A stretch of DNA of 32,000 bases, taken from contig NZ_CP047931.1 of NCBI RefSeq assembly GCF_014280175.1, forward strand, positions 1,710,001 through 1,742,000, in the 5' to 3' direction. Positions within the stretch are counted from its first letter, which is position 1. Each line of letters opens with the position of its first letter. Below are positions 2,186-32,000 of the stretch, piece after piece. The stretch is from Synechococcus sp. A15-28 (lineage in GTDB: Bacteria; Cyanobacteriota; Cyanobacteriia; PCC-6307; Cyanobiaceae). Below the pieces are notes generated by a model. It had not been told where the DNA came from. It saw nothing but the letters and a program-made list of their open reading frames with translations, and made no database searches. Made by a program: the position numbers and the translations under genes.

Positions 2186-3028
2186 TCAGTCGGTTTTGCG
2201 CAAACGCATCAAACCCCAGCTGAGACGTCCCTGCTGGCCACCCTCCACCCAGTGGCCAAGGCCCACATCCATCCGGTCCAGATAAGCGGAACTGATGCTC
2301 GCTTCCAGTTCTGCGCGGCGTGAACGGGTGTCCTGACGCACCCGGTCGTAGTGCCGCACCAGCATCTCGGTGCGTTCATCCCACACCTCCAGCGTCAGAC
2401 CAACCGCCTCACCCCAGGCCTTGTAACGGGCTGGAGAGGCAAGGTCCGGCAGGTGAATCCGGTCAAGGATCGGCTGAAGCAATCCCATCTCCACACCGTC
2501 CGCTGCCATCGGGTCGGTGAACACGAAACAGCCTCCAGGCTTGAGAAGACGGGACACCTCGGCCAAAACCTTGGCTCGATCACCGGCATGCAGGATCGCA
2601 TCCTGACTCCAGACCAAATCAGCACTGGCATCAGCCACGGGCACCTGCTCAAAGGAGGCATCGTGCACCGTGATCTGCTGATCCAAACCGGCGTCAATGT
2701 TCAGCTGCCGATGGCGATCGTTCTCCACTGAGGAAATGTTGATGGCATGAACCGATCGTTCACTCCAGCGGGCCAGGCGCCGTGATGCTCCACCATAACC
2801 AGCCCCGAGATCCACCACACATCCGCCCTGGGGCAGGGTGTCGGCCAGATCAAGCAGGGCATGCACAGTGCGGTCACTGGCCGTGGCGATGGCCTCATCG
2901 AACGTTGCATACAAACCGATATGAATGTCCTCACCACCCCAAACCAGTTCGTAGAACCGATCAGCGTCCTGACTGTCGTAGTAAGTCGCGGCGACGGAAT
3001 CCGCTGCTGAGCCGTTCGTTGTACTCAT
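2186..3028 (-). CDS. gbmt2: Sarcosine/dimethylglycine N-methyltransferase (second enzyme of glycine-to-betaine methylation)
   Basis: 280 aa, ATG start. By recall it resembles the Aphanothece halophytica / Synechococcus WH 8102 DMT along its length: YYDSQDADRFYELVWGGEDIHIGLY, SAM motif VVDLGAGYGGASRRLA, VWSQDAILHAGDR, GGCFVFTDPM, YLDRMDVGLGHWVEGG. It lies 5 nt downstream of gbmt1 on the same strand. Confidence 0.85.
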   Translation of the reverse strand: MSTTNGSAADSVAATYYDSQDADRFYELVWGGEDIHIGLYATFDEAIATASDRTVHALLDLADTLPQGGCVVDLGAGYGGASRRLARWSERSVHAINISSVENDRHRQLNIDAGLDQQITVHDASFEQVPVADASADLVWSQDAILHAGDRAKVLAEVSRLLKPGGCFVFTDPMAADGVEMGLLQPILDRIHLPDLASPARYKAWGEAVGLTLEVWDERTEMLVRHYDRVRQDTRSRRAELEASISSAYLDRMDVGLGHWVEGGQQGRLSWGLMRLRKTD

Positions 3029-3033
3029 CAGCC

Positions 3034-3882
3034 TCAGTGCATGGTGGCGTCAACGTCGAAGCGATATTCCTTCTCTGCGACGTGTACATAAAAATCGGGA
3101 TTTTCAAAGTCCCGCTGATAGTCACCGAAGCTGCTGATCTGCTGGAAGCCCACTTCAGACATCAGACGGCGTACATAGCCATAGCGCAACGGGAACATGT
3201 TGAGGTGATAAACCCCACCGTCACTGAAGGAGTAGCGGAAGCGCGCCAACCCTTCATCAATATGTTCCGGGCCAACTTCCACATCCTCACCGCAGTACAC
3301 ATTGCCTTTCCCCTGCCGGACCGCGGATCCGCCCTCGAGCAATCGGTCGTAATTACGGTGGTCGAGTATCAGAATGCCGTTGTGTTTGAGAACGGCGTAA
3401 TACTCTGCCAGGGCTTTGCGCCGATCCTTCTCCTTGAAGAGATGGGTGAATGAATTACCCAGACAGATCACGGCATCGTATTCACCGTGGATATCTCGGT
3501 TGAGGAAACGCCAGTCCGCCTGAGAGGTTCTCAGCAACTGATTGCGGTTTCGCGCATTGCGGAATGCTCGGGCCAGCATGTTGGGACTGCCATCAGCACT
3601 CACCACATCAAACCCTTCTTCCAGCAGTCGGATTGAGTGAAACCCGGTGCCCGTCGCCACATCCAACACCGAACGGGCACCGTGCTCCTTGAGCAGACGA
3701 ATAAAGAAGTCGCCCTCGGCCTTAGCCCGTGCATTCCAATCGATCAGCCGATCCCAGCGATCGGTGAAGTCTTCGATGTACTCCTGCTGGTAGTGATCCG
3801 TCTCGCGAACCGACTCAGGAGAATCTCCAAAACGCTGCTGATCGTCCTGGGCCTGCAAAGGATGGTTCTGCGTTGACGTCAT
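3034..3882 (-). CDS. gbmt1: Glycine/sarcosine N-methyltransferase (first enzyme of betaine synthesis)
   Basis: ORF 3034..3897. The track start is TTG; the first ATG is at 3882 (MTSTQNHP). GSMT-like strings: VRETDHYQQEYIEDF, SAM motif VLDVATGTGFHSIRLLEEGFDV, AVICLGNSFTHLF, GLARFRYSF, YHLNMFPLRYGYVRRL, DFYVHVAEK. Confidence 0.85.
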   Translation of the reverse strand: MTSTQNHPLQAQDDQQRFGDSPESVRETDHYQQEYIEDFTDRWDRLIDWNARAKAEGDFFIRLLKEHGARSVLDVATGTGFHSIRLLEEGFDVVSADGSPNMLARAFRNARNRNQLLRTSQADWRFLNRDIHGEYDAVICLGNSFTHLFKEKDRRKALAEYYAVLKHNGILILDHRNYDRLLEGGSAVRQGKGNVYCGEDVEVGPEHIDEGLARFRYSFSDGGVYHLNMFPLRYGYVRRLMSEVGFQQISSFGDYQRDFENPDFYVHVAEKEYRFDVDATMH

Positions 3883-4000
3883 TCCGAATCCATTCAAAGT
3901 TCAAACAGACTTCTTAAAATTCACCAGGGCAAGGTCTATTCCTACCCCAACAAACAAAATGAAGTCTTGGTGATCTGCAATCACATATTCCAATGATAGA

Positions 4001-4023
4001 CACTGACAGAGCAGTTGTCAGTG
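4001..4023. promoter_or_regulatory. Perfect 8-bp inverted repeat CACTGACA-N7-TGTCAGTG (candidate operator)
   Basis: Read directly: 4001-4008 cactgaca, 4016-4023 tgtcagtg (exact reverse complement). It sits centrally in the divergent region, 119 nt from the gbmt1 ATG and 179 nt from the proV ATG. Confidence 0.4.
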
Positions 4024-4121
4024 ATTGAGAAAACAATCTGCCATCAGCAGCACAGGACAAACCCCAAGATCCGCTGCCCCGCAGTCAGACCCAGAGAATA
4101 TTTCAACATTCAGAACCCCGC

Positions 4122-4166
4122 CTGGTCAGATCGCCACCCCGCAAGCGGTGGCGCCGCTCTGACCAG
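4122..4166 (+). promoter_or_regulatory. Long GC-rich stem-loop in the proV leader
   Basis: Outer stem ctggtcaga (4122-4130) pairs with tctgaccag (4158-4166), 9 bp. Inner stem cgccacc (4132-4138) pairs with ggtggcg (4147-4153), 7 bp. It ends 35 nt before the proV ATG and has no following U-run. Confidence 0.5.
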
Positions 4167-4201
4167 CATGCCTACCCTTTCAGAAGCGGAACAGGCCTGG
4201 C

Positions 4202-5206
4202 ATGGATGAGCCGATCCGCCTCCGGCAGGTGTGGAAATCCTTCGGTGGTCGACCGGGTGCTTCGCCATCCGAACTTCTCCGCTCCTCTGAAGCGCGAGTC
4301 GCCGTGCAGGACGTTTCCTTATCGGTCAGGACCGGAGAAATCTTCGTGGTGATGGGGCTGTCCGGATCCGGGAAGTCCACCCTGCTCCGCATGATCAATG
4401 GTTTGATCGCCCCCAGCCATGGGGTGGTCGACATTGAAGGCCGATCGCTGCAGCAGTTCAGCCGAAGCGAACTACAGGCCCTCAGACGCCGCAGCATGGC
4501 AATGGTGTTCCAATCCTTTGCTCTGTTCCCGCAGCGCAGTGCCCTCGAGAATGCGGCCTTTGGCCTTGAGGTAGCCGGTATTCCCCGCCGCCAACGCCTG
4601 GCCAGGGCCCAGCAGGCGCTGGAGCGGGTTGGCTTGGGTCAAGACCTGCACCGAAAGCCTGATCAGTTATCCGGCGGCATGCGTCAGCGGGTTGGCCTGG
4701 CGAGAGCTCTGGCGCTGGATCCACCTGTCCTTTTGATGGATGAAGCCTTTTCAGCGTTGGACCCGCTGATCCGGTCCGACATGCAGGATCTGTTGCTGGA
4801 TCTGCAACGGGAACACCGGCGAACGATCGTCTTCATTTCCCACGATCTGGATGAAGCTGTTCGGATCGGCGATCGCATCGCGTTGATGCAGGACGGACGC
4901 TTGCTGCAGTGCGATGCCGCGGAGACGCTGTTTCGCTCCCCAGCGGAACCGGCCGTGGCTGAATTTTTTCGTGGTGTTGATCCCGCTGGCGTCCTCACCG
5001 TCGGAGCCATCGCAGATCCATCGGCACCATCGGTGAAATGGGATCCAACGAATCCTGACCTCACCGTGCTCTCCTCAACGATGCTGATCAAGGAGGCAAT
5101 CCCGATCGTCACCGCAGCCAACGGACCTGTGGCAGTTGTCGGCCCCGATCACCATCTGATCGGGGCGGTGTCGCCGAACACCATCCTGCGGGCGCTGAGT
5201 CGATGA
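4202..5206 (+). CDS. proV: Glycine betaine/proline ABC transporter ATP-binding protein
   Basis: Walker A GLSGSGKST, signature LSGGMRQR, Walker B LLMDEAFSALD, H-loop ISHDL. CBS-like C-terminal tail. ATGA overlap with proW. Confidence 0.9.
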   Translation: MDEPIRLRQVWKSFGGRPGASPSELLRSSEARVAVQDVSLSVRTGEIFVVMGLSGSGKSTLLRMINGLIAPSHGVVDIEGRSLQQFSRSELQALRRRSMAMVFQSFALFPQRSALENAAFGLEVAGIPRRQRLARAQQALERVGLGQDLHRKPDQLSGGMRQRVGLARALALDPPVLLMDEAFSALDPLIRSDMQDLLLDLQREHRRTIVFISHDLDEAVRIGDRIALMQDGRLLQCDAAETLFRSPAEPAVAEFFRGVDPAGVLTVGAIADPSAPSVKWDPTNPDLTVLSSTMLIKEAIPIVTAANGPVAVVGPDHHLIGAVSPNTILRALSR

Positions 5207-6117
5207 ATTTTTTCTCAAGTCAACTTTGGCTGGCCCAAGCCAGCACGTCCGGAGCCGTAGGCGCAGCAGCGGACAGCACCGTCAGCTGGCTGCTGGGAAA
5301 CGGTGGTGCCCTGTTCAGCCTGGTTAACACCACAATCCTGACGCTGACGGGATTCTGCGAACAATTCCTCAACGCTCCATCCCCATGGCTACTGGCTCTG
5401 GTGGTGGCACTGCTGGGGCTCTGGCGGGTCAGTGCCAGCTTCGGCCTGCTCAGTCTCCTCGGTCTGAATCTGGTCAAGGCCATGGGCCTGTGGGAGCCGA
5501 TGGTCAGCACCCTCGCCCTCGTGCTGACCGCCTCCTTGTTGGCCCTCACCATCGGACTTCCCCTGGGGGTTCTGGCCGCCCGTCAACGCAGCATCTGGCA
5601 GCTCACCCGTCCGCTGCTTGATCTGATGCAGACCATGCCGGCCTTTGTGTACCTTATTCCCGCCGTGATGCTGTTCAGCACGGGCGCCGTGCCCTCAGTG
5701 ATCGCCACATTGATCTTCTCCATGCCACCGGTGGTGCGGCTCACTGTTCTGGGCATCCGCCAGGTGCCGGCGGATCTCATCGAAGCGGGGCGATCCTTCG
5801 GCTGTTCCGAGTGGCAGTTGCTCACCAAGGTGCAGCTGCCGAATGCCCTGCCAACACTGATGACCGGCGTGAATCAGACGATCATGCTGGCGCTGTCGAT
5901 GGTGGTGATCGCCTCGATGATCGGTGGAGGAGGACTTGGTGATGTGGTGCTTCGAGGCATCCAACAGTTGAACATCGGCCTCGGCTTCGAGGGCGGTCTG
6001 GCCGTGGTGATCCTCGCGGTGATCCTGGATCGGCTCAGCCAGAGCCTCAGCACGCCCCCCGCCACATCCGTACGTGTTCGTGTCCGCAGCCTGGTGAACC
6101 TCTGGAGACTCCCATGA
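5203..6117 (+). CDS. proW: Glycine betaine/proline ABC transporter permease
   Basis: Multi-TM protein with an EAA-type loop (LIEAGRSFGCSEWQLLTKVQLPNALPTLMTGVNQTIMLALSMVVIASMIG). Overlaps proV and proX by 4 nt each (ATGA). Confidence 0.9.
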   Translation: MNFFSSQLWLAQASTSGAVGAAADSTVSWLLGNGGALFSLVNTTILTLTGFCEQFLNAPSPWLLALVVALLGLWRVSASFGLLSLLGLNLVKAMGLWEPMVSTLALVLTASLLALTIGLPLGVLAARQRSIWQLTRPLLDLMQTMPAFVYLIPAVMLFSTGAVPSVIATLIFSMPPVVRLTVLGIRQVPADLIEAGRSFGCSEWQLLTKVQLPNALPTLMTGVNQTIMLALSMVVIASMIGGGGLGDVVLRGIQQLNIGLGFEGGLAVVILAVILDRLSQSLSTPPATSVRVRVRSLVNLWRLP

Positions 6118-7082
6118 ACAAGCTTCAGCTCTGGCGACGACGCAGTGTGCTTCTGGCGGGTCTTGGCTTGGCCGGTGCCTCCCTGCACAACCTGGCGCGC
6201 CGCCCCGATACCTCCCCATCCAACCTGGCGACGGACACCCCTCCATCAACGTCACAAGTCGAATCGCCTGACGACGACAGCTCTGCCGATCAACCTTTGA
6301 AACTGGGCTGGTCTGCCTGGGCCGATGCCGAGGTGGTGAGCCTGATGGCCGCCAAGCTGATCGAGTCCGAGCTCAATCAACCGGTGGAACGGGTGATGGC
6401 TGACATCGGCATCCAGTACCAATCCGTGGCTCGCGGTGATCTGGACCTGATGCTGATGGCCTGGCTGCCAGGCACCCACAGGGATTACTGGAGCAAGGTG
6501 CGTGACCGGGTGCTGGATCTCGGGCCGATGTACTCCGGCCGGCTGGGGTGGATCGTGCCCGACTATGTGCCGAGGGAGGCGATCTCCAGCATTGAGCAAC
6601 TCAAGGACCCAAAGCTGGCTGCTCGTTTTGATGGACGCGTTCAGGGCATTGACCCAGGGTCAGGGCTCAACCAGGCCTCTCTGGATGCCCTCAAGCAATA
6701 TGGATTATCCTCGATTCAGCTGGTGGCCTCCAGCAGCGCAGCCATGGCTGCTGTTTTGGCCCAGGCGATCGAAGAGCAACGCTGGCTGATTGCCACGAGC
6801 TGGACTCCTCACTGGATGTTTGCCCGCTACAAGCTGCGCTTCCTCGAGGATCCCAAAGGCAGTTTCGGAGGAACGGAACGCATCCATGCGGTGGCCCGAC
6901 AGGGTCTGGACCAGCGGCATCCTGCGGTGACAGCGTTCCTCAGCCGCTTTCATCTCCCCGATCGCGACCTGGATGGCTTGCTGCTGCAAGCGCAGGAGTC
7001 ATCAGCCGAGGCTGCGGTGGCGACCTACCTGGACCGCCACCCCAACCGGATCCGCTACTGGACAACGGGTGAGATCAGCTGA
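6114..7082 (+). CDS. proX: Glycine betaine-binding periplasmic protein (OpuAC/ProX family)
   Basis: Signal with a twin-arginine-like WRRRSVLLAGLGLAGA. OpuAC-like strings LKLGWSAWADAEVVSL, LMLMAWLPGTHRDYW, GIDPGSGL. Third gene of the coupled operon. Confidence 0.85.
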   Translation: MNKLQLWRRRSVLLAGLGLAGASLHNLARRPDTSPSNLATDTPPSTSQVESPDDDSSADQPLKLGWSAWADAEVVSLMAAKLIESELNQPVERVMADIGIQYQSVARGDLDLMLMAWLPGTHRDYWSKVRDRVLDLGPMYSGRLGWIVPDYVPREAISSIEQLKDPKLAARFDGRVQGIDPGSGLNQASLDALKQYGLSSIQLVASSSAAMAAVLAQAIEEQRWLIATSWTPHWMFARYKLRFLEDPKGSFGGTERIHAVARQGLDQRHPAVTAFLSRFHLPDRDLDGLLLQAQESSAEAAVATYLDRHPNRIRYWTTGEIS

Positions 7083-7906: not shown

Positions 7907-8986
7907 TCAACCGATGGCAGGAGCTTGCAGAGCCACAGGAGTGGACTCAGCAGCAGCCAGGTCGAGGGGGAAGTTGTGAGCGTTGCGCTCGTGCATCACT
8001 TCCATACCGAGGCCGGCACGGTTCAACACGTCGGCCCAGGTGTTCAGGACGCGGCCCTGACCATCAAGGATGGACTGGTTGAAGTTGAAGCCGTTCAGGT
8101 TGAAGGCCATGGTTGACACGCCCAGGGCGGTGAACCAGATGCCGACAACAGGCCAGGCAGCCAGGAAGAAGTGAAGGCTACGGCTGTTGTTGAAGGAGGC
8201 GTATTGGAAGATCAGGCGACCGAAGTAACCGTGGGCAGCCACGATGTTGTAGGTCTCTTCCTCTTGGCCGAACTTGTAGCCGTAGTTCTGGGACTCGGTC
8301 TCGGTGGTTTCACGCACCAGGGAGGAGGTCACCAGGGAGCCGTGCATGGCGGAGAACAGGGAACCACCGAACACACCTGCAACACCCAGCATGTGGAAGG
8401 GGTGCATCAGGATGTTGTGCTCAGCCTGGAACACCAGCATGTAGTTGAACGTGCCGGAGATGCCCAGGGGCATGGCGTCAGAGAAGGAGCCCTGACCGAA
8501 GGGGTAGACCAGGAAGACTGCAGAGGCAGCAGCGACAGGTGCGCTGTAGGCGACGCAGATCCAGGGGCGCATGCCCAGGCGGTAGGAGAGTTCCCACTCA
8601 CGACCCATGTAGGCGTAGATGCCGATCAGGAAGTGGAAGACGACGAGCTGGAAAGGACCGCCGTTGTACAGCCACTCATCGAGAGAAGCGGCTTCCCAGA
8701 TGGGATAGAAGTGCAGGCCGATGGCGTTGCTGGAAGGAACAACAGCACCGGAGATGATGTTGTTGCCGTAGATCAGGGAGCCAGCGACAGGCTCGCGGAT
8801 GCCATCGATGTCAACCGGAGGAGCGGCGACGAAAGCGATGACGAAGCAGATGGTGGCAGCCAGCAGGGTGGGGATCATCAGCACACCGAACCAACCGACA
8901 TACAGACGGTTGTTGGTGGAGGTGACCCACTCGCAGAAGGCCTGCCAGCTGGAAGCGCCGGAGCGCTGCTGGAGGGTGGTGGTCAT
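7907..8986 (-). CDS. psbA: Photosystem II reaction-centre protein D1, D1:2-type isoform (Glu130)
   Basis: 359 aa, unmistakable D1 sequence ([26 protein letters not shown] ... [14 protein letters not shown]). Counting residues gives R129-E130-W131. E130 marks the D1:2 (stress/high-light) form; Q130 marks D1:1. Confidence 0.98.
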
Positions 8987-24892: not shown

Positions 24893-27066
24893 ATGACGAT
24901 CAGCGCACCTCCTGCACTCGCTTCACTACGAGGTAACCCGCTTGAGCCGCAAGGGACTCCCTTTCGTCGCTTCATAGGTTCTCCTCACCCCTTCGGGAGC
25001 ACAGTTGAATCTGAAGGAGTCAACTTCTCTCTTTACAGCAGCAGCGCAACAAGTGTTCAACTGCTGATCTTCACCAAACCAGACGATCTTGAGCCTTCAA
25101 AGGTCATCGATCTAGATAGAAACAATAATAGAAGCTTCAACATTTGGCATACCTTCATTGAGGGGGTGAAGCCGGGCATGGGTTATGCCTACCGCGTCGA
25201 CGGCCCTCGAGAGCCCTGGAACGGCAATCGTTTTGATCCCGACAAGGTTTTGGTGGATCCATATTCCAAGGGGAACAGTTTTGCGCGTTGGGATCGGGGA
25301 GCTGCCTGCACGCCCGGCGACAATCTGCACAAATCAATGCGCAGTGTTGTTATCGACACCAACAACTACGACTGGGAAGGGGACCAACCACTGAAAAAAC
25401 CAATGGCTGAGACCATTGTTTATGAGATGCACGTCGGTGGCTTCACAAAAAGCCCCACGAGTGGCGTTAAACATCCCGGAACTTATCTTGGCCTGATTGA
25501 GAAAATCCCCTATCTCAAGGAACTGGGAATAACGGCCGTTGAGCTGCTGCCTGTTTGCAGTTTCGACCACACCGATATCACCAAGGTCCACGAAGGACGC
25601 AAATTGGTGAATTACTGGGGCTACAGCACTATGGGATACTTTGCCCCCCATCAAGGATATTGCGTCAACCCAGACACAAGTCAACATATCAATGAATTCC
25701 GAGACATGGTAAAGGCCCTGCATCAAGCAGGAATCGAAGTCATCCTGGACGTTGTATACAACCACACAGACGAAGGCAATCATCAAGGTCCAACATTTAG
25801 CTTCAAAGGGATCGACAACTCTTCGTATTACTACCTCACTGGACCGGATGGATCTCGTGAGTTTTACTATGACTACACAGGTTGCGGAAACACCTTTAAC
25901 TGCAATCACCCTGTTGGAGAAAAACTGATCATCGACTCCCTTCGATTCTGGGTCGAAGAGATGCATGTTGACGGCTTCCGTTTTGATGAAGGGTCGGTGT
26001 TGAGTCGAGGGGAAGATGGAGTTCCACTGGAGCATCCTCCAGTCATCTGGGCGATTGAACTCGACGATTTGCTCGGTCAATCCAAAGTGATCGCTGAGGC
26101 TTGGGATGCTGCTGGCTTGTACCAAATCGGCTCCTTCCCTGGAGCTCGTTGGGCCGAGTGGAATGGAAAATACCGAGATTGCATCAGGAATTTCATCAAG
26201 GGGGAGCCAGGAATCATTGGAGAAGTTGCAGGACGAATCACAGGAAGTGCCGATCTGTATCAGGGTCGTCACCACGAACCAACGAACAGCGTCAACTTCG
26301 TTACTGCTCATGATGGCTTCACCTTGTATGACCTGACGGCGTACAAAGAAAAACACAACTGGGCAAACGGCGAGGGAAACAATGACGGAATTGACGACAA
26401 CGTCAGCTGGAATTGTGGCGCTGAGGGCGAAACAAACGATCAATGGATCAATGGATCAATGATCTTCGCAAACGCCAGGTCAAGAATTTCGCAACCATCC
26501 ACATGCTTTCAATCGGTGTTCCGATGATCGTTGCGGGAGATGAATTTATGCGCAGTCAGGGTGGCAATAACAACACTTATTGCCATGACAACGAAATCAA
26601 TTGGTTTGATTGGAACAAGATACAGCAGCCTGAACGACAAGAGATGATTCGATTCTGGTCCATGATCATGGACAAGAGAAGGAGATATATTGATCATTTC
26701 AAAGGTAAATATTTCGAAGGCAAGCAAAATCGGTTTGGCCTATATGACGTTTCTTGGCATGGCACCAAATTAAATAGTCCTGGCTGGGACGATCCCAATG
26801 CGCTGTGCCTTGGCATGACACTTGGAGATACAGCAGAAGACACAGACCAAACACTCAATATCCACGTCATGTTCAACATGTACTGGGACGGTGTCGAGTT
26901 CGAGATACCTCAGGCTTCTGACCTGAGGTGGTATCGAGCCATCGATACTGCCCTTCCAACACCAAATGACATCCAACCTCCTGAACAACAAGTTGCCATT
27001 GATGGCAACACATATCTCGTAACTGGAAGAAGTATTGTTGTTCTCGCTTCGCGAGAAACAAACTGA
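24893..27066 (+). pseudogene. glgX: Glycogen debranching enzyme / isoamylase (GH13, GlgX type) split by a +8-bp tandem repeat expansion
   Basis: ORFs 24893..26527 and 26443..27066 are the N- and C-terminal parts of one GlgX. GH13 regions are present: VILDVVYNHT, GFRFDEGSVL, AEAWD, FVTAHDGFTL, then LSIGVPMIVAGDEFMRSQGGNNNTYCHDN in the second ORF. Removing one 8-bp unit at 26438-26461 joins them (...ETNDQWINDLRKRQVKNF...) into 721 codons. Confidence 0.85.
26438..26461. repeat. Three perfect tandem copies of GATCAATG at the glgX frameshift site
   Basis: 26438-26445, 26446-26453 and 26454-26461 are all gatcaatg. Two copies would keep the frame; three shift it by +2. Confidence 0.95.
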
Positions 27067-27120
27067 ATTCCCTAGCAATTCTGCCACAATAACAATTCCA
27101 CAATTTCCACATTCCAAGTC

Positions 27121-29283
27121 ATGGCATCTAAAAATCAACTGAACTTCCCCTTCTCAGATCTCGTCGCTGGGTACATTCGCAGCGTCTCCTATCCGGAGAT
27201 CTTTGACTGCAAGGGCATGGTCGAACTGGAGACATCCGATGGACGGATGTACACCGTGAAAATCACAGATGCCTGTTACGCAGAGCTTGTACGCAACCTT
27301 GGTGAGCCCTTCCAGGTGGCACCTGATATGTCACAGATCCTTGTAGAGGATCGTTTTGTCCATGTGTATGGACTCTTCTACCCTGAAGCTGACAGCCTCA
27401 AGTTTGAGGCCAAGCACATGCTTCTCTTCGGCCGTGGAAAAGATGATCTGCGTTTCGAAGATCAGAACTGGTGGATTCATCAAATTCAGCAGTTGTTGAA
27501 TTTCTATCTTGAAGCTCAATTCAAGGTCGTCGAAGGCGAAGCTATTGACTTCAAAAAATTCCGCACTGATTTGAGTGCTGAGGGTAAGAAGCAGGATGGC
27601 GTTCAGAACCTCGATACTATCTCACGACTGGTGTATGGCTTTGCAACGGCCTACATGATCACTGGCGATGAACGTGCCCTCGAAGCTGCCACCAATGGCA
27701 CTGAGTACATGCAGCGCCACTTCCGCCATCAGAATAAGAGTGAAGGAATCTGTTACTGGTACAGCCAGATTGATATCCAAGACGATGGAAGTGTACGCAA
27801 ATACATGGGCTCCACTGCAGGTGGAGATGAAGGTGGTAATGCCATTCCTTGCTACGAGCAGATTTACGCTCTTGCTGGACCCACTCAAACCTGGCGTCTC
27901 ACCGGCGGTGAATCTATTAAGCATGATATCGACGATACAATCGCATTCTTGAATCGCTTCTACAAGGATCACGGTCCTTATGGAGGTTATTACTCTCATG
28001 TTGATCCAGTCACCTTCGACGCCAAAGCTGAATCCCTCGGGGTTAACAAGGCCAAGAAGAACTGGAACTCCGTTGGTGACCACGCACCCGCCTACTTGAT
28101 CAACCTTTATCTGGCCACAGGCGACGAGGGGTACGCGAAGTTCCTTGAGGATACGTTTGACACGATCTGCGAACACTTCCCTGACTACGGCTATAGCCCC
28201 TTCATGAACGAGAAGTTCTATGAGGACTGGACACACGATCTGAAGTGGGGCATTCACCAAGCCCGTTGTGTTGTGGGTCACAACCTGAAAGTGGCGTGGA
28301 ACCTCACCCGCATGCATAGCCTCAACCCCAAGGAGAGCTACAAAACCTTTGCTCACCAGATTGCCGATGCCATCCCCCCTGCCGGTTGCGACAACCAGCG
28401 CGGTGGTTGGTACGACATGATGGAGCGGACGCTGAAGGATGGTGAAGAGCACTATCGCCGCGTCTGGCACGACCGCAAGGCTTGGTGGCAGCAGGAACAG
28501 GGAATTCTTGCTTACTACATCATGGCTGGCGTTTACAACGACAAGCCTGAATATCTGCGTTACGCCAGAGAAGGCACGGCTTTCTACAACGGTTGGTTCC
28601 TGGACTATGAGTCCGGCGGCATCTATTTCAACGTTTTAGCCAACGGTCAGCCCTACTCTCTTGGATCCGAGCGTGGTAAAGGTAGCCACTCCATGGCGGG
28701 CTATCACTCATTTGAACTCTGTTTCCTTGCAGCGATTTACTCGAACCTGCTTGTCACCAAGCAGCCAATGGACTTCTACTTCCGTCCAGATCCTCAGGGA
28801 TGGCCCGACAACAAATTGCGAGTCGCACCTGACCTGCTTCCTGCTGGCAGTGTTGAACTGAGTGAAGTCTGGATTGACGACAAAACCTTCACCGATTTCG
28901 ATCGAAAGGAGATGATCGTCAACCTGCCCAATTCCGATAAACCACTCCGCGTTCGCGTTCGTATTGAACCAGCAGGAATGGGCTTCAGTGCTGATCTTAT
29001 GAGCTTTGAGAACGGAATTGGCAAGTTTGCACTTGATGGTGACCTCACGCGTTGTAAGCTCCCAACCCTGAAAAAAGAGCTGGAGAGACTCTCCGGGGTC
29101 AAGGGAATTGTCTTGGATATGACAAATCTCAAGACAGTTGACGACACAGGTTGGAACTACCTCCTGTTCACAAAACAACAGCGAGGAGCTGAATTTAGCG
29201 TTCAACTTTCCGGACTAAATCAAGTCATCAGTCAGTCTCTAAAAGACGCTGAACTCGATGAGGAGTTCGCTGTTATCGGCTAA
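27121..29283 (+). CDS. Multidomain protein: unknown N-terminal domain, AGE/cellobiose-2-epimerase-superfamily (alpha/alpha)6 core, beta-rich linker, C-terminal STAS domain
   Basis: 720 aa, ATG start. AGE-family-like strings: VVGHNLKVAWNL (His387, cf. GHxxExxW), RKAWWQQEQGILAY (cf. WWxQxEA), AGYHSFELCFLA (His529, cf. YHNGRA). The last 90 aa or so (about 29000-29280) look like STAS/anti-sigma antagonist: FALDGDLTRCKLPTLKKELERLSGVKGIVLDMTNLKTVDDTGWNYLLF. Followed by a strong terminator. Confidence 0.8.
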   Translation: MASKNQLNFPFSDLVAGYIRSVSYPEIFDCKGMVELETSDGRMYTVKITDACYAELVRNLGEPFQVAPDMSQILVEDRFVHVYGLFYPEADSLKFEAKHMLLFGRGKDDLRFEDQNWWIHQIQQLLNFYLEAQFKVVEGEAIDFKKFRTDLSAEGKKQDGVQNLDTISRLVYGFATAYMITGDERALEAATNGTEYMQRHFRHQNKSEGICYWYSQIDIQDDGSVRKYMGSTAGGDEGGNAIPCYEQIYALAGPTQTWRLTGGESIKHDIDDTIAFLNRFYKDHGPYGGYYSHVDPVTFDAKAESLGVNKAKKNWNSVGDHAPAYLINLYLATGDEGYAKFLEDTFDTICEHFPDYGYSPFMNEKFYEDWTHDLKWGIHQARCVVGHNLKVAWNLTRMHSLNPKESYKTFAHQIADAIPPAGCDNQRGGWYDMMERTLKDGEEHYRRVWHDRKAWWQQEQGILAYYIMAGVYNDKPEYLRYAREGTAFYNGWFLDYESGGIYFNVLANGQPYSLGSERGKGSHSMAGYHSFELCFLAAIYSNLLVTKQPMDFYFRPDPQGWPDNKLRVAPDLLPAGSVELSEVWIDDKTFTDFDRKEMIVNLPNSDKPLRVRVRIEPAGMGFSADLMSFENGIGKFALDGDLTRCKLPTLKKELERLSGVKGIVLDMTNLKTVDDTGWNYLLFTKQQRGAEFSVQLSGLNQVISQSLKDAELDEEFAVIG

Positions 29284-29320
29284 TTAAGCTGATTTCTAGC
29301 AATCATCCAAAACCCATCTG

Positions 29321-29346
29321 AAGGCGTGCGAAAGCACGCCTTTTTT
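29321..29346 (+). terminator. Rho-independent terminator after the AGE-STAS gene
   Basis: aaggcgtgc-gaaa-gcacgcctt stem-loop (9 bp, GNRA-type loop) running into tttttt. It lies 38 nt after the stop. Confidence 0.9.
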
Positions 29347-29359
29347 CTGGACTATTCCA

Positions 29360-30748
29360 ATGAGTAACTTCATAGCTATCAGCAAGCTGGGCGTTCAAGC
29401 GGCACAAAGTGGAGATTTGGCAACTGCTGAAAAGTATTTCCGCCAAGCGGCAGATATGAAGGGAGAGCCACCAGAAGCAATCTTTAATTTATGCAGACTG
29501 CTGAATATGCAAGGCAGACATAAGGATGTAGTCCAATCTTTTACCAAAAGGATAAAATCGCAAGACTACGTAACTATACATCCGCAACTTCTCTTAATCG
29601 CGAGCCAGTCTGCGCAAAGCTGCAGAAATCATTCACTGGCAATTGAGATCTTATCGTCTCTCCATTATAAGTATCCAGAAAATATTGAGACATCAGTTAT
29701 GCTAAGTACACTAGAGATCGAAGCAGGCAGGCTTAGCGCGGCAATGAATATTATCAACATTACTATTAAACAAAGTGGTCGCAGTCCGTCACTTCTAACA
29801 AACCTAGCCATTTGCGAATCAGAGATGGGGAACCTTCAAACTGCGGACAACATTCACAAGGAAATTATAAGCAAGAATCCCGAAAAATTCCTTGCTTACT
29901 TTAATTATGGAAAATATCTGGCAACAGTAGGCGAAACCTCATTAGCAAAGCAATCGTTCAAAAAATGCCTAGAAATCGTACCCAATGCGCCAGAGGCATT
30001 GGAAGCAATCAATCAAATCGAACCGCAAGACACATCGATCGCTAAATTCTATGCAAAAATTGAATTAGGCGACTATCATAGAGCAGCAGTAATTCTCAAG
30101 GAGCATTCGAACACTATCGGCACCAGCGATTACTTATCATGTATAAGTTACCTTAACGAAAAATACCGTTCTTGGTTTGGCGAGTCTAGACAATTCTCGC
30201 CCAAACAATTAGTTCATAAACACAATTTAAATGAGGATACAAGTATTGACCTTAATTCATTGTATACCTACGTCAAGAATAGCGAATCGTTAATCAAGGA
30301 CAGGCCTGGGAAACCGACAATAAACGGCTATCAAACCTACGAAGTCCTTAAAGGTTCGACAAATCAAACAGTAAAAATTCTATGTGAAAAGATTATATCG
30401 TTAGCAACCGATTACTACGACACCTTAGAACTCCCATACAAAATGGGTAACGGCAATAACAGATATGAGATTAGCGGATGGGGAGTTGCATTAAATGGGG
30501 GCGGGCATCAAAAGCTTCATACACATCCAGAAGCCAAAATAAGTGGAGTACTTTATCTGAAGACGTCGAAAGAAACCGAATCAATGGAAACCGACAAAGG
30601 AAATATACTTTTCCCTACAGTGGAATCTCTTTCAATAGCTCCGTACACAGGGCTTATGATTATATTTCCGAGCTATTTACCTCACTCAACAGTACCAACA
30701 ACTGAAGAGAATGAAAGAGTATGTATTGCATTTAATGTAAACTTTTAG
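29360..30748 (+). CDS. TPR-repeat protein fused to a 2OG-Fe(II)-oxygenase-like domain (TIGR02466 / 2OG-FeII_Oxy_5 type)
   Basis: The N-terminal 220 aa or so form TPR-like helical repeats (AEKYFRQAADMKGEPPEAIFNLCRLL..., AKQSFKKCLEIVPNAPEAL). C-terminus: GWGVALNGGGHQKLHTHPEAKISGVLYL...GLMIIFPSYLPHSTVP...RVCIAFNVNF. This matches the H-x-H ... FPS-x-x-x-H ... R-x-S/C-x-x-FN pattern of that family by recall. Confidence 0.75.
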   Translation: MSNFIAISKLGVQAAQSGDLATAEKYFRQAADMKGEPPEAIFNLCRLLNMQGRHKDVVQSFTKRIKSQDYVTIHPQLLLIASQSAQSCRNHSLAIEILSSLHYKYPENIETSVMLSTLEIEAGRLSAAMNIINITIKQSGRSPSLLTNLAICESEMGNLQTADNIHKEIISKNPEKFLAYFNYGKYLATVGETSLAKQSFKKCLEIVPNAPEALEAINQIEPQDTSIAKFYAKIELGDYHRAAVILKEHSNTIGTSDYLSCISYLNEKYRSWFGESRQFSPKQLVHKHNLNEDTSIDLNSLYTYVKNSESLIKDRPGKPTINGYQTYEVLKGSTNQTVKILCEKIISLATDYYDTLELPYKMGNGNNRYEISGWGVALNGGGHQKLHTHPEAKISGVLYLKTSKETESMETDKGNILFPTVESLSIAPYTGLMIIFPSYLPHSTVPTTEENERVCIAFNVNF

Positions 30749-30753
30749 CTCAA

Positions 30754-31917
30754 TCAATAGGGCAAGACTGAGTAGCCACCAATAATTAGATCTACATAGA
30801 ATCTATAGCAACCAGAATGAGTTGGCGTAAACTCGAGGGCTGGCGGATTCCCGTGAGACGTTAATTGGCCATAGTGTTTAAGTGAGCCTAAACTAGGATC
30901 TGCTGAATAAGGGTTAGAGCCACTAAAATTATATCCTTTGCAGTCTAGTTCATAGTCTGCATAAACAAGAGCCCATGGCGACGAATTAGCAACATATTTA
31001 TAGTTATAGGTTGTACCAGCCTCGAGTTGCAATACCTTTTCAAATCTTCCTGGACCCAGGGGATTCATGATGTTTAATTTTGATGTGGGGTCCCACGCAG
31101 CCATTGGTTGATCAAAAGAACCAACAAGTGACAATGCATCAATCGTATCAATAGGTAATAGAGTTGCATCACCTTCAACCACGTCAACAGTCAATCTGTC
31201 AGTAGAAGGATCAAACATGAATTCCAACATTGATTCATGATCAAGCTTGAAGCAAATATTGAGTTCGTGTGGCTTACCGTGCCAGGTTGTGCATTTAATT
31301 GATTTTTGAGACTTTACGTTTTCTAGATCAAGCCAACATCCAAGCCCCATTGTGTCCAGAAAAAGCTCTGAGCTAATTCCGATATTGACTACATGAAAAC
31401 CTGCTTTGACTTTAGTCACCATTCCAACATAGGGCGTGCCAGCTACTGGATGCATCTCACGAGCAGGATCAGTAGGATCGAATTGATTTTGATCAAAAAT
31501 ACTTCCCAATAACTGATAACTCTTTCTGTCGTTTAAAAGATCAGGACTTTTGCCGTCGTTTCTTTTATTATCCGCATAGTCAACAGTTATTGATGGAGAA
31601 GGCGACATTGGGTTATGCAGGCTAAAGCGATATATAGAATCCTCATAAACACGTACAGTACAACCTGAATGAAAAGATGTGCCGTGGCTACTGCCAAAAC
31701 CAGTTCCTTGAACAAGAGAACCTTGACCATCATTCAAGGATGAAAAGCCAAAATCTTCTTCATAATCAGCCGAAATCAGGAATTGATAAACGCCATCTGC
31801 CCTAAAATCTATGCCACCGTTTTTAAGCAGTGGAACATCAATCGTCCAAAGATCATCTGACTGGCGCTCAAAATCTCTACCTTTGAGGCGAGGATCAAAC
31901 TTTTCAAACATATTCAA
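30754..31917 (-). CDS. Hypothetical protein with repeated beta-sandwich (CBM/E-set-like) modules; possibly 5'-truncated by the window edge
   Basis: The track start at 31917 is TTG; the first ATG is at 31911. I translated the same frame upstream (IPSAGAATVEPITSFSSYQLNGFVWDSLNM...) and found no stop up to position 31998. Repeated pattern: LVGSF..W.P...M.....F...L.L.AG..Y.YKYV, as in LSLVGSFDQPMAAWDPTSKLNIMNPLGPGRFEKVLQLEAGTTYNYKYVANSSPW. Confidence 0.6.
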   Translation of the reverse strand: MNMFEKFDPRLKGRDFERQSDDLWTIDVPLLKNGGIDFRADGVYQFLISADYEEDFGFSSLNDGQGSLVQGTGFGSSHGTSFHSGCTVRVYEDSIYRFSLHNPMSPSPSITVDYADNKRNDGKSPDLLNDRKSYQLLGSIFDQNQFDPTDPAREMHPVAGTPYVGMVTKVKAGFHVVNIGISSELFLDTMGLGCWLDLENVKSQKSIKCTTWHGKPHELNICFKLDHESMLEFMFDPSTDRLTVDVVEGDATLLPIDTIDALSLVGSFDQPMAAWDPTSKLNIMNPLGPGRFEKVLQLEAGTTYNYKYVANSSPWALVYADYELDCKGYNFSGSNPYSADPSLGSLKHYGQLTSHGNPPALEFTPTHSGCYRFYVDLIIGGYSVLPY

Positions 31918-32000
31918 AGAGTCCCATACAAAGCCGTTAAGTTGGTAACTTGAGAACGAAGTGATCGGCTCAACTGTTGCAGCCCCGGCACTAGGTATCA

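Follow-up and report, generated by a model that had tools for sequence, protein, structure and literature searches.

A STAS-Fused AGE-Superfamily Protein Paired With the Debranching Enzyme GlgX in Synechococcus sp. A15-28

What is the function of a sugar epimerase-like protein that carries a STAS domain and is encoded next to a glycogen debranching enzyme? This question is raised by a gene in a stretch of 32,000 nucleotides from Synechococcus sp. A15-28 (contig NZ_CP047931.1, positions 1,710,001 to 1,742,000), here called the window, to which all coordinates refer. The gene, located on the + strand at 27121..29283, is an intact open reading frame (ORF) of 720 amino acids with an ATG start, as judged from the ORF list, the homologs and the N-terminus, which aligns to the orthologs from the first methionine. 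An earlier note, made from the sequence alone, had read it as a sugar epimerase or isomerase of the N-acylglucosamine 2-epimerase (AGE) superfamily fused to a C-terminal STAS domain. This ORF and all strings quoted for it are present, namely VVGHNLKVAWNL at residues 384-395, KAWWQQEQGILAY at residues 453-465, GYHSFELC at residues 527-534 and GIVLDMTNLKTVDDTGWNYLLF at residues 662-683. The protein, in the following called AGE-STAS, was found to consist of four domains, an OB-fold-like barrel, a divergent AGE-superfamily (α/α)6 barrel, a β-sandwich and a STAS domain. Tentatively, it may be a reducing-end isomerase or epimerase for α-glucan chains released by GlgX, in which the STAS domain would serve as a tethered docking or regulatory module.

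Domain Architecture

The central barrel comprises residues ~158-546 (27592..28758, + strand) and was assigned by Foldseek and profile alignments. Taken alone, the window protein is nearly silent. PF07221 gave no match at E<=1, and the searches of Pfam, NCBIfam and PDB sequences returned only weak sub-threshold fragments of GH127 and EpiA (cellobiose-epimerase). None of the curated NCBIfam models fits the protein, and for the cellobiose-epimerase equivalog NF041848, whose cutoff is 800 bits, the score is 18 bits, obtained on a fragment of 50 residues only. Orthologs, profiles and structure were therefore needed for the domain calls. PF07221, which the earlier note expected in the protein itself, is matched by 12 of 21 orthologs (best E-value 3.4e-19) but not by the window protein. 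The family core profiles match solved sequences of AGE and cellobiose 2-epimerase (CE) at 3e-6 to 1e-7, with 8BRY at 1e-7.

The AlphaFold2 model of the full-length protein has a predicted local distance difference test score (pLDDT) of 77.8 and a predicted template modeling score (pTM) of 0.80. Its comparison with the PDB by Foldseek, which the earlier note had proposed, gave significant AGE-superfamily matches with E-values down to 3.7e-13. This top match is the cellobiose 2-epimerase 3WKF (target TM-score 0.75), followed by 8H1L, 5X32, 2RGK, 7AG4, 2GZ6, and 1FP3. All structures on ranks 1-39 are AGE, CE, YihS, mannose-isomerase or glucose-2-epimerase structures (E-values 3.7e-13 to 5.6e-8, target TM-scores 0.64-0.76), and glycoside hydrolases (GH) of the same fold appear in the list at 1e-6 or worse. 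By the PF07221 matches of the orthologs, the profiles and Foldseek, the assignment to the AGE superfamily was correct.

The C-terminal STAS domain (residues ~620-720; 28978..29280, + strand) was recognized by Pfam, the family profile and the modelled topology. In the window protein the Pfam STAS match extends over residues 631-716 and has an E-value of 3e-3 and 17.7 bits, which is below the cutoff of 22.6 bits. The model passes in 12 of 21 orthologs with a best E-value of 3e-10, and the full-length family profile matches SpoIIAA structures at 2e-3 to 5e-3. The modelled elements (β622-630, β633-642, α644-655, β662-673, α675-688, β693-697, α701-709, and β717-719; pLDDT 81-93) follow the canonical topology. 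The STAS call of the earlier note is thereby confirmed by the ortholog matches, the SpoIIAA profile match and the topology; its Pfam expectation came true for the residue range and the orthologs, whereas the window sequence itself stays sub-threshold.

The N-terminus (residues 1-135; 27121..27525, + strand) had matched nothing recognizable in the earlier note, but it is not featureless. In the AlphaFold2 model of residues 1-150 (pLDDT 83) it forms strands at 14-23, 32-37, 43-56, 79-88, and 93-102, followed by a long helix at 117-134, and so models as a five-stranded, OB-fold-like β-barrel plus helix. The top 50 Foldseek PDB matches of this model are all OB folds, among them RPA32/RPA14, Stn1/Ten1, RMI2, the LysRS N-domain and OBody. 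Since the similarity is modest (E-values 1.7e-4 to 7e-3, TM-scores ~0.35-0.5), the call is kept at the level of the fold. A signal peptide is not evident by eye in the N-terminus of the window protein.

Between the AGE-like barrel and the STAS domain, a small β-sandwich (residues ~549-618; 28765..28974, + strand) was identified from the AlphaFold2 model and profile matches, with strands at 550-554, 565-567, 578-585, 588-590, 599-601, and 611-617 (pLDDT ~88-95). All relatives retain it, also the STAS-less ones, in which the profile matches reach position ~612.

Active Site Residues

The residue equivalences given here are taken from hidden Markov model (HMM) alignments, not from structure superposition. 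R169 is aligned to R66 of the cellobiose 2-epimerase RmCE (profile alignment) and Y245 to Y114 of CsCE, the substrate-binding arginine and tyrosine of these enzymes, and both are invariant even in relatives of 24-40% identity. G386-H387 is aligned to G246-H247 of CsCE and Y528-H529 to the 'YH' motif of the CE enzymes (StCE), with H387 and H529 near-invariant in the same relatives. In the CE enzymes, His247/His377 of CsCE, which are equivalent to His259/His390 of RmCE, are the acid/base pair of the superfamily, Tyr114 of CsCE stabilizes the intermediate, and the arginine, the tyrosine and both histidines form the established AGE/CE catalytic set (PMC5726027). H321, located in the near-invariant stretch 'NWNSVGDH', fits the third histidine (His188 of CsCE) by spacing only, and we infer that it is the putative third AGE/CE histidine. 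Further invariant or near-invariant residues of the family are N388, K390, W456, E459, Q460, and E532.

The three most conserved stretches of the family are residues 362-383, 423-453, and 494-527 (nt ~28204-28269, 28387-28479, and 28600-28701). All three are insertions relative to the canonical AGE/CE enzymes. They probably shape the active site.

Distribution and Annotation of the Family

A search at 90% clustering gave 4535 homologs (E<=1e-3). Almost all of the best 120 have a length of 705-736 amino acids and 52-94% identity to the window protein; between phyla the identity is still ~50% over 715 residues, with a mean column identity of 68%. At least 591 species-level genomes from more than 10 phyla encode this architecture. 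The taxa comprise Cyanobacteria, Planctomycetota, Alpha-, Beta- and Gammaproteobacteria, Desulfobacterota, Chloroflexota, Actinomycetota (Actinoplanes, Dactylosporangium), Chlorobi, Bacteroidota, Deinococcota, Nitrospinota, Armatimonadota, and Verrucomicrobia. Orthologs with 67-72% identity were observed in Acaryochloris, Leptolyngbya and Cylindrospermopsis as well as in metagenome-assembled genomes of Opitutaceae and Hyphomicrobiales.

Public databases label these proteins 'N-acyl-D-glucosamine 2-epimerase', 'AGE family epimerase/isomerase' or 'epimerase-like protein/anti-anti-sigma factor', and a functional study or description of the AGE-STAS family was not found in the literature. The earlier note knew of no characterized AGE-fold enzyme with a covalently attached STAS domain, and none was found in the literature searched. 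The novelty of the fusion itself was overstated, since it is common and already annotated automatically.

The GlgX Partner and Other Conserved Neighbors

Directly upstream lies glgX (24893..27066, + strand), which encodes an isoamylase-type debranching enzyme in two ORFs (Pfam CBM_48, Alpha-amylase, ISOA1-3_C, and Isoamylase_C) and ends 54 nt upstream of the AGE-STAS start. In the earlier note it figured as an incidental neighbor. This does not hold, as 53 of 57 loci have a GlgX gene next to the AGE-like gene on the same strand, in most cases within 250 bp, which makes it a near-obligate partner. Three of the four exceptions are located at contig ends or have short flanks, and the fourth (L041) has an X25-like gene next instead. 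The partner in locus L004 passes the NCBIfam GlgX equivalog TIGR02100 with 715.3 bits (cutoff 640.9 bits).

In an unbiased clustering of the ORFs, 74 loci had GlgX and 71 had the AGE-like gene. The same clustering returned DJ-1/PfpI in 37 loci (45 of 57 by tblastn), a benzoylformate-decarboxylase-like thiamine pyrophosphate (TPP) enzyme in 30, a ThiJ-like protein in 23 and a VOC/glyoxalase protein in 20. GMC oxidoreductases and NTF2/SnoaL-like, EthD, SDR and metallo-β-lactamase (MBL)-fold proteins are less frequent. The Cys-His nucleophile motif of the DJ-1/PfpI partners is invariant (37 of 37), which shows them to be catalytically intact.

The distance matrices of the AGE-like proteins and GlgX are correlated (Mantel r 0.45, with 0 of 999 permutations as high), which is weak evidence because shared phylogeny contributes. 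In Nostoc sp. NIES-4103, two separate GlgX and AGE-STAS pairs are present (L027, L028), so that both genes of the pair were duplicated together.

In the window, glgX is interrupted by an 8-bp tandem duplication near 26440-26463, which results in overlapping ORFs at 24893-26527 (544 amino acids) and 26443-27066 (207 amino acids). Against an intact ortholog of 721 amino acids, tblastn gave 81% and 64% identity in two frames. The duplication site reads GATCAATGGATCAATGGATCAATGATC in the window and GATCAATGGATCAATGATC in an ortholog locus of 93% identity (L007), and the GH13 catalytic motifs are located upstream of the frameshift. Behind the frameshift there may be a real pseudogene, a variant that arose by slippage or an error in the assembly.

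Two further roles were considered for the loci and rejected. A sulfoquinovose (YihS/Xsc-like) pathway does not fit, as benzoylformate decarboxylase and not Xsc is the nearest match of the TPP enzyme and no conserved sulfoquinovosidase gene was found, and the gene context gives no hint of a role in anti-phage defense.

In Nostocales (L024-L047), a conserved pair of genes was observed ~200-1300 bp downstream of the AGE-STAS gene. In 17 loci, a response-regulator receiver is joined to a Pyr_redox_2 domain of the thioredoxin-reductase-like type; the second gene codes for a histidine kinase binding cyclic nucleotide monophosphates (14 loci). This pair may be a lineage-specific regulatory input.

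Fusions of the AGE-Like Core

In some distant members the C-terminal STAS domain is replaced. A DJ-1/PfpI domain takes its place in P0131, P0140, and P0143, as detected by Pfam, and in P0141, as detected by alignment. The neighboring genes of the distant relative P0143 (L090) code for a TPP enzyme, a GlgB-like GH13 protein of 1084 amino acids, ThiJ-like and Memo proteins and the GH77 enzyme MalQ.

P0128 (1191 amino acids; L088/L089) has the same core of OB fold, AGE-like barrel and β-sandwich, with an X25-like extension of ~350 residues instead of STAS. This extension (residues 843-1186) is homologous over the whole ORF to a protein of 387 amino acids encoded in the window at 30754..31917 on the - strand (BLASTP E-value 8e-53, 29% identity). 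The latter matches Pfam X25_BaPul_like below threshold (7e-4), that is, a weak pullulanase X25-like domain of the α-glucan-binding type. X25-like homologs were also found in picocyanobacterial loci (L008, L010, L012, L013, and L052), and in L041 and L043 (Xenococcaceae) they lie directly downstream of AGE-STAS. By these independent fusions and fissions the AGE-like core is linked with STAS, with DJ-1/PfpI and with proteins related to α-glucans. The N-terminus of P0128 resembles a signal peptide, and its surroundings lack α-glucan genes, so that the enzyme may also occur in an exported form.

Origin of the STAS Domain

The earlier note had proposed that the enzyme is gated by partner switching. 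A sister lineage of eight loci, seven cyanobacterial and one verrucomicrobial (L064, L074, L077, L081, L082, L084, L085, and L086), bears on this proposal, as core and STAS are encoded there by separate genes. The order in these split loci is DJ-1/PfpI, sometimes VOC, an AGE-like gene of ~605 amino acids without STAS, a STAS gene of 113 amino acids (STAS1) and GlgX. A second STAS gene (STAS2) follows 3′ of glgX in five of the eight. An RsbW-like (HATPase_c_2) kinase gene was found in seven of them and a SpoIIE/PP2C phosphatase gene, in one to three copies, in six. The corresponding Pfam matches reach 4.7e-23 (STAS), 2.9e-22 (HATPase_c_2), and 1.5e-43 (SpoIIE). A match to the fused domain was obtained with STAS2 in 25 fused-type loci and with STAS1 in none.

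The stand-alone STAS proteins of the split loci carry serine at the phospho-site in all 14 cases. In the window protein, Asp675 (codon 29143-29145) sits at the position of the phospho-serine Ser58 of SpoIIAA, and among 48 fused STAS domains the residue varies (nine Asp, nine Ser, nine Pro, five Thr, four Ala, three Gly, three Lys, two Asn and others). In a tblastn search of the loci, kinase and phosphatase genes (HATPase_c_2, SpoIIE/PP2C) were found neither in the window nor in any fused-type locus. A sigma factor was not seen in the split or the fused-type loci. From the constant serine on the one side and the variable site without nearby kinase or phosphatase genes on the other, it follows that partner switching fits the sister lineage. 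Support for the proposal is indirect: it agrees with the split loci, most of which have STAS, kinase and phosphatase genes, and probably describes the ancestry of the fused domain, whereas a kinase-driven switch in the window gene is not supported. A SulP-STAS transporter in the neighborhood was also considered as source or partner of the domain and was rejected, as it occurs in picocyanobacterial loci only (3 of 57) and shows no link to the fused STAS.

Proposed Function and Alternatives

A reducing-end isomerase or epimerase for GlgX-released chains would work as follows. The barrel would use the AGE/CE two-histidine proton transfer, with H387 and H529, R169, Y245 and probably H321, to open the ring of a reducing-end glucose and then to epimerize or isomerize it at C2. 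It would act on linear α-1,4-glucan chains or malto-oligosaccharides provided by the co-encoded GlgX, at their reducing end, and not on a free N-acyl-hexosamine. The resulting keto or rearranged sugar would be passed on to carbonyl processing by the DJ-1/PfpI, ThiJ-like, VOC and benzoylformate-decarboxylase-like TPP enzymes. The STAS domain would descend from a partner-switching antagonist, which the sister lineage would keep as a separate phosphorylatable protein together with an RsbW-like kinase and a PP2C phosphatase. As the phospho-site is lost (Asp675), the fused domain is most likely a permanently tethered docking, oligomerization or allosteric module and not a kinase-controlled switch.

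Several points weigh against this proposal. The glutamate of the 'GHxxE' motif is replaced family-wide by Lys390 (GHNLK, compared with GHDIE in CsCE and GHAIE in PhAGE), and that of 'WWxxxE' is shifted by one residue (E459-Q460), lying one position earlier in 'WWQQEQ'. By these two changes the chemistry may differ from that of a plain epimerase. The three conserved insertions are modelled at pLDDT <50, so that the pocket cannot be inspected in the AlphaFold2 model. The window protein alone fails PF07221 and stays below the STAS threshold. Furthermore, glgX is frameshifted in this window, which would mean a decay of the pair at this locus or an enzyme that can do without GlgX. Gene adjacency and the mirror-tree correlation are partly expected from shared ancestry. 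Finally, a simple epimerase would leave the company of DJ-1, TPP, VOC, and GMC proteins unexplained.

Among the alternatives, a glycoside hydrolase or lyase acting directly on α-glucan is unlikely. The invariant carboxylates of the barrel would then be catalytic and the protein would team up with GlgX as in the eukaryotic debranching enzyme, in which an (α/α)6 glucosidase domain cooperates with a GH13-like transferase domain. The (α/α)6 barrel is a common glycoside-hydrolase scaffold, E364, E459, and E532 are invariant and D320 near-invariant, the canonical GHxxE glutamate is lost, and the coupling to GH13 and GH77 enzymes and to the X25-like module is tight. Weak matches to GH127 (E-value 6e-3; 10 of 21 orthologs), GH47 and D-glucuronyl C5-epimerase, and GH76 and GH127 structures lower in the Foldseek list (1e-6 to 1e-5), point in the same direction. 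However, the top 39 structural neighbors are all of the AGE type, with E-values five to seven orders of magnitude better than those of any hydrolase, the residues aligned to the AGE/CE arginine, tyrosine and both histidines are conserved throughout the superfamily alignment, and the HMMs of the GH families all remain below threshold.

Somewhat less probable is that the database label is right and the protein is an N-acyl-D-glucosamine 2-epimerase or an isomerase of free hexoses (mannose, glucose, fructose), with glgX nearby through a loose clustering of carbon metabolism. The public names, the PF07221 matches among the orthologs and the presence of glucose 2-epimerase, mannose isomerase and AGE among the structural neighbors agree with such an enzyme. 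The names are automatic, however. The CE equivalog reaches only 18 of the 800 bits required, and no specific model matches. Genes for sialic acid, N-acetylmannosamine or amino sugars are absent from the conserved neighbors found by unbiased clustering, whereas GlgX is paired with the family in 53 of 57 loci and across more than 10 phyla. The fusion partners are an X25-like module and DJ-1, and the three extra domains and the change from glutamate to lysine are absent from the characterized monosaccharide enzymes. The label 'N-acyl-D-glucosamine 2-epimerase', carried by thousands of entries, is probably misleading.

A bolder extension, in our opinion improbable, is that the AGE-like enzyme starts a non-hydrolytic and non-phosphorolytic 'peeling' of α-1,4-glucans. 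The reducing-end glucose of a chain released by GlgX would be turned into a 2-ketose, in which Lys390 could possibly assist, and this isomerization would prime the β-elimination of the 4-O-linked chain. A glucan shorter by one unit and an α-dicarbonyl of the 4-deoxy-2,3-hexodiulose type would be released, and the latter would be used by the DJ-1/PfpI, ThiJ-like, VOC and MBL proteins, the NTF2/EthD-type tautomerases and the benzoylformate-decarboxylase-like TPP enzyme. The route would be toggled by STAS, in some lineages together with kinase and phosphatase. If true, this would be an undescribed pathway of glycogen catabolism across more than 10 bacterial phyla.

A non-catalytic scaffold or pseudoenzyme, in which barrel and OB fold would bind α-glucan ends and STAS would recruit or control GlgX and DJ-1/PfpI, is very improbable: STAS and OB folds are typical interaction modules, STAS is swapped for other partners by fusion and fission and several canonical residues are altered, but both catalytic histidines are retained, and the mean column identity across phyla with its invariant or near-invariant putative catalytic residues exceeds what a scaffold usually needs.

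Setting of the Gene in the Window

The window comes from a marine picocyanobacterium, and its nearest relative genomes belong to Synechococcus/Parasynechococcus/Cyanobium. From ~25 kb on, the GC content is 0.39-0.53, compared with 0.57-0.66 before, so the low-GC setting described in the earlier note was found as stated. The block (~25000-32000) is made up of glgX, AGE-STAS, a gene with tetratricopeptide repeats (TPR) and a 2-oxoglutarate (2OG) oxygenase domain, and the X25-like ORF, and its low GC content suggests a horizontally acquired island. The flanks are also as described there, with the debranching-enzyme gene upstream, the oxygenase gene downstream and the carbohydrate-binding-module-like ORF beyond it on the opposite strand.

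An own strong terminator of the AGE-STAS gene, likewise claimed before, was read directly at 29320..29347 (+ strand). It consists of a 10-bp stem (GAAGGCGUGC / GCACGCCUUU) with a GAAA loop, followed by a T-tract. The segment 29305-29352, which contains the hairpin, folds with -21.2 kcal/mol (z -5.53), and 0 of 200 shuffled sequences fold as well. A scan with a consensus pattern for terminators missed this clear hairpin and T-tract, so that its negative results are not to be trusted.

The TPR/2OG-Fe(II) oxygenase gene (29360..30748, + strand) was identified by Pfam 2OG-FeII_Oxy_5 (6e-17) and TPR repeats. It was considered as a core component, but it occurs only in picocyanobacterial-type loci (Cyanobium NAT70 L001-L003 and, among the genome loci, L007-L013 and L052) and is therefore probably not part of the core system.

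In another part of the window (2186-7082 and 7907-8986), two adjoining genes for S-adenosylmethionine-dependent methyltransferases are located beside an ABC transporter with an OpuAC glycine-betaine-binding subunit. By gene content, this looks like a locus for glycine-betaine synthesis and uptake. It is followed in the window by a psbA (D1) gene.

Comparison With Known Systems

Bacterial glycogen breakdown is taught as the work of GlgP, GlgX and MalQ/MalP. The near-obligate partnership with GlgX and DJ-1/PfpI is not explained by the current pathways and suggests a branch of glycogen metabolism in bacteria that has yet to be described. Epimerases, STAS, DJ-1 and PfpI all go unmentioned in a 2024 review of the α-glucan enzymes of prokaryotes. 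In cyanobacteria, Planctomycetota, Proteobacteria, Chloroflexota, Actinomycetota, Chlorobi and further phyla, GlgX is coupled to an AGE-type enzyme of high conservation, and the AGE-STAS/GlgX pair is a testable candidate for a new step or control point of α-glucan metabolism.

Cellobiose 2-epimerase (RmCE 3WKF/3WKG, CsCE 7D5G/8WBU; EC 5.1.3.11) is the best structural match to the barrel. By HMM alignment, its arginine, its tyrosine and both acid/base histidines are conserved in the AGE-STAS family, and its target is the glucose at the reducing end of an oligosaccharide, a substrate of the type proposed here. The sequence identity to the AGE-STAS protein is only 13-18%. Moreover, cellobiose 2-epimerase is a single domain of ~400 amino acids for β-1,4 disaccharides with the motif GHDIE, whereas AGE-STAS adds an OB fold, a β-sandwich and STAS, carries GHNLK and is tied by its genomic context to α-glucan enzymes. 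The AGE and YihS sulfoquinovose-mannose isomerases (PF07221: 2GZ6, 1FP3, 8BRY, 2RGK, 7AG4, and 5X32) have the superfamily fold in common with AGE-STAS. In contrast to this family, they are single-domain enzymes for monosaccharides, are encoded in sialic-acid, sulfoquinovose or mannose operons and have neither a STAS, OB or DJ-1 fusion nor a GlgX pairing.

The trehalose pathway TreX-TreY-TreZ, compared here as background and not by a dedicated test, also co-encodes a GlgX-type debranching enzyme with a remodeler of the reducing-end glucose, as proposed for AGE-STAS. TreY, however, is an intramolecular transglycosylase of GH13 and does not work by proton transfer of the AGE type. Genes for TreY or TreZ did not turn up in the AGE-STAS loci, and the trehalose pathway has nothing equivalent to their DJ-1, TPP, and VOC genes.

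With the modules SpoIIAA/RsbV - SpoIIAB/RsbW - SpoIIE/RsbU the STAS fold is common, and the split loci share the serine and, in most cases, the HATPase_c_2 and SpoIIE genes. The sigma factor of these modules is lacking in AGE-STAS and split loci alike, and the fused lineage has no conserved phospho-serine and no kinase or phosphatase genes nearby. In Anabaena PCC 7120, the STAS-bearing glycosyltransferase All4160 is under phosphorylation-dependent partner switching by the phosphatase HenR and the kinase Alr3423 (PMC13555669). Like AGE-STAS, it is a cyanobacterial carbohydrate enzyme with a covalently attached STAS domain, and partner switching acts there on the enzyme and not on a sigma factor (PMC13555669). 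Its catalytic domain, a glycosyltransferase, is unrelated, and its STAS residue can be phosphorylated, whereas AGE-STAS has Asp675 and no kinase or phosphatase gene nearby in the window. AGE-STAS is a second case, after All4160, of a STAS domain attached to a carbohydrate enzyme.

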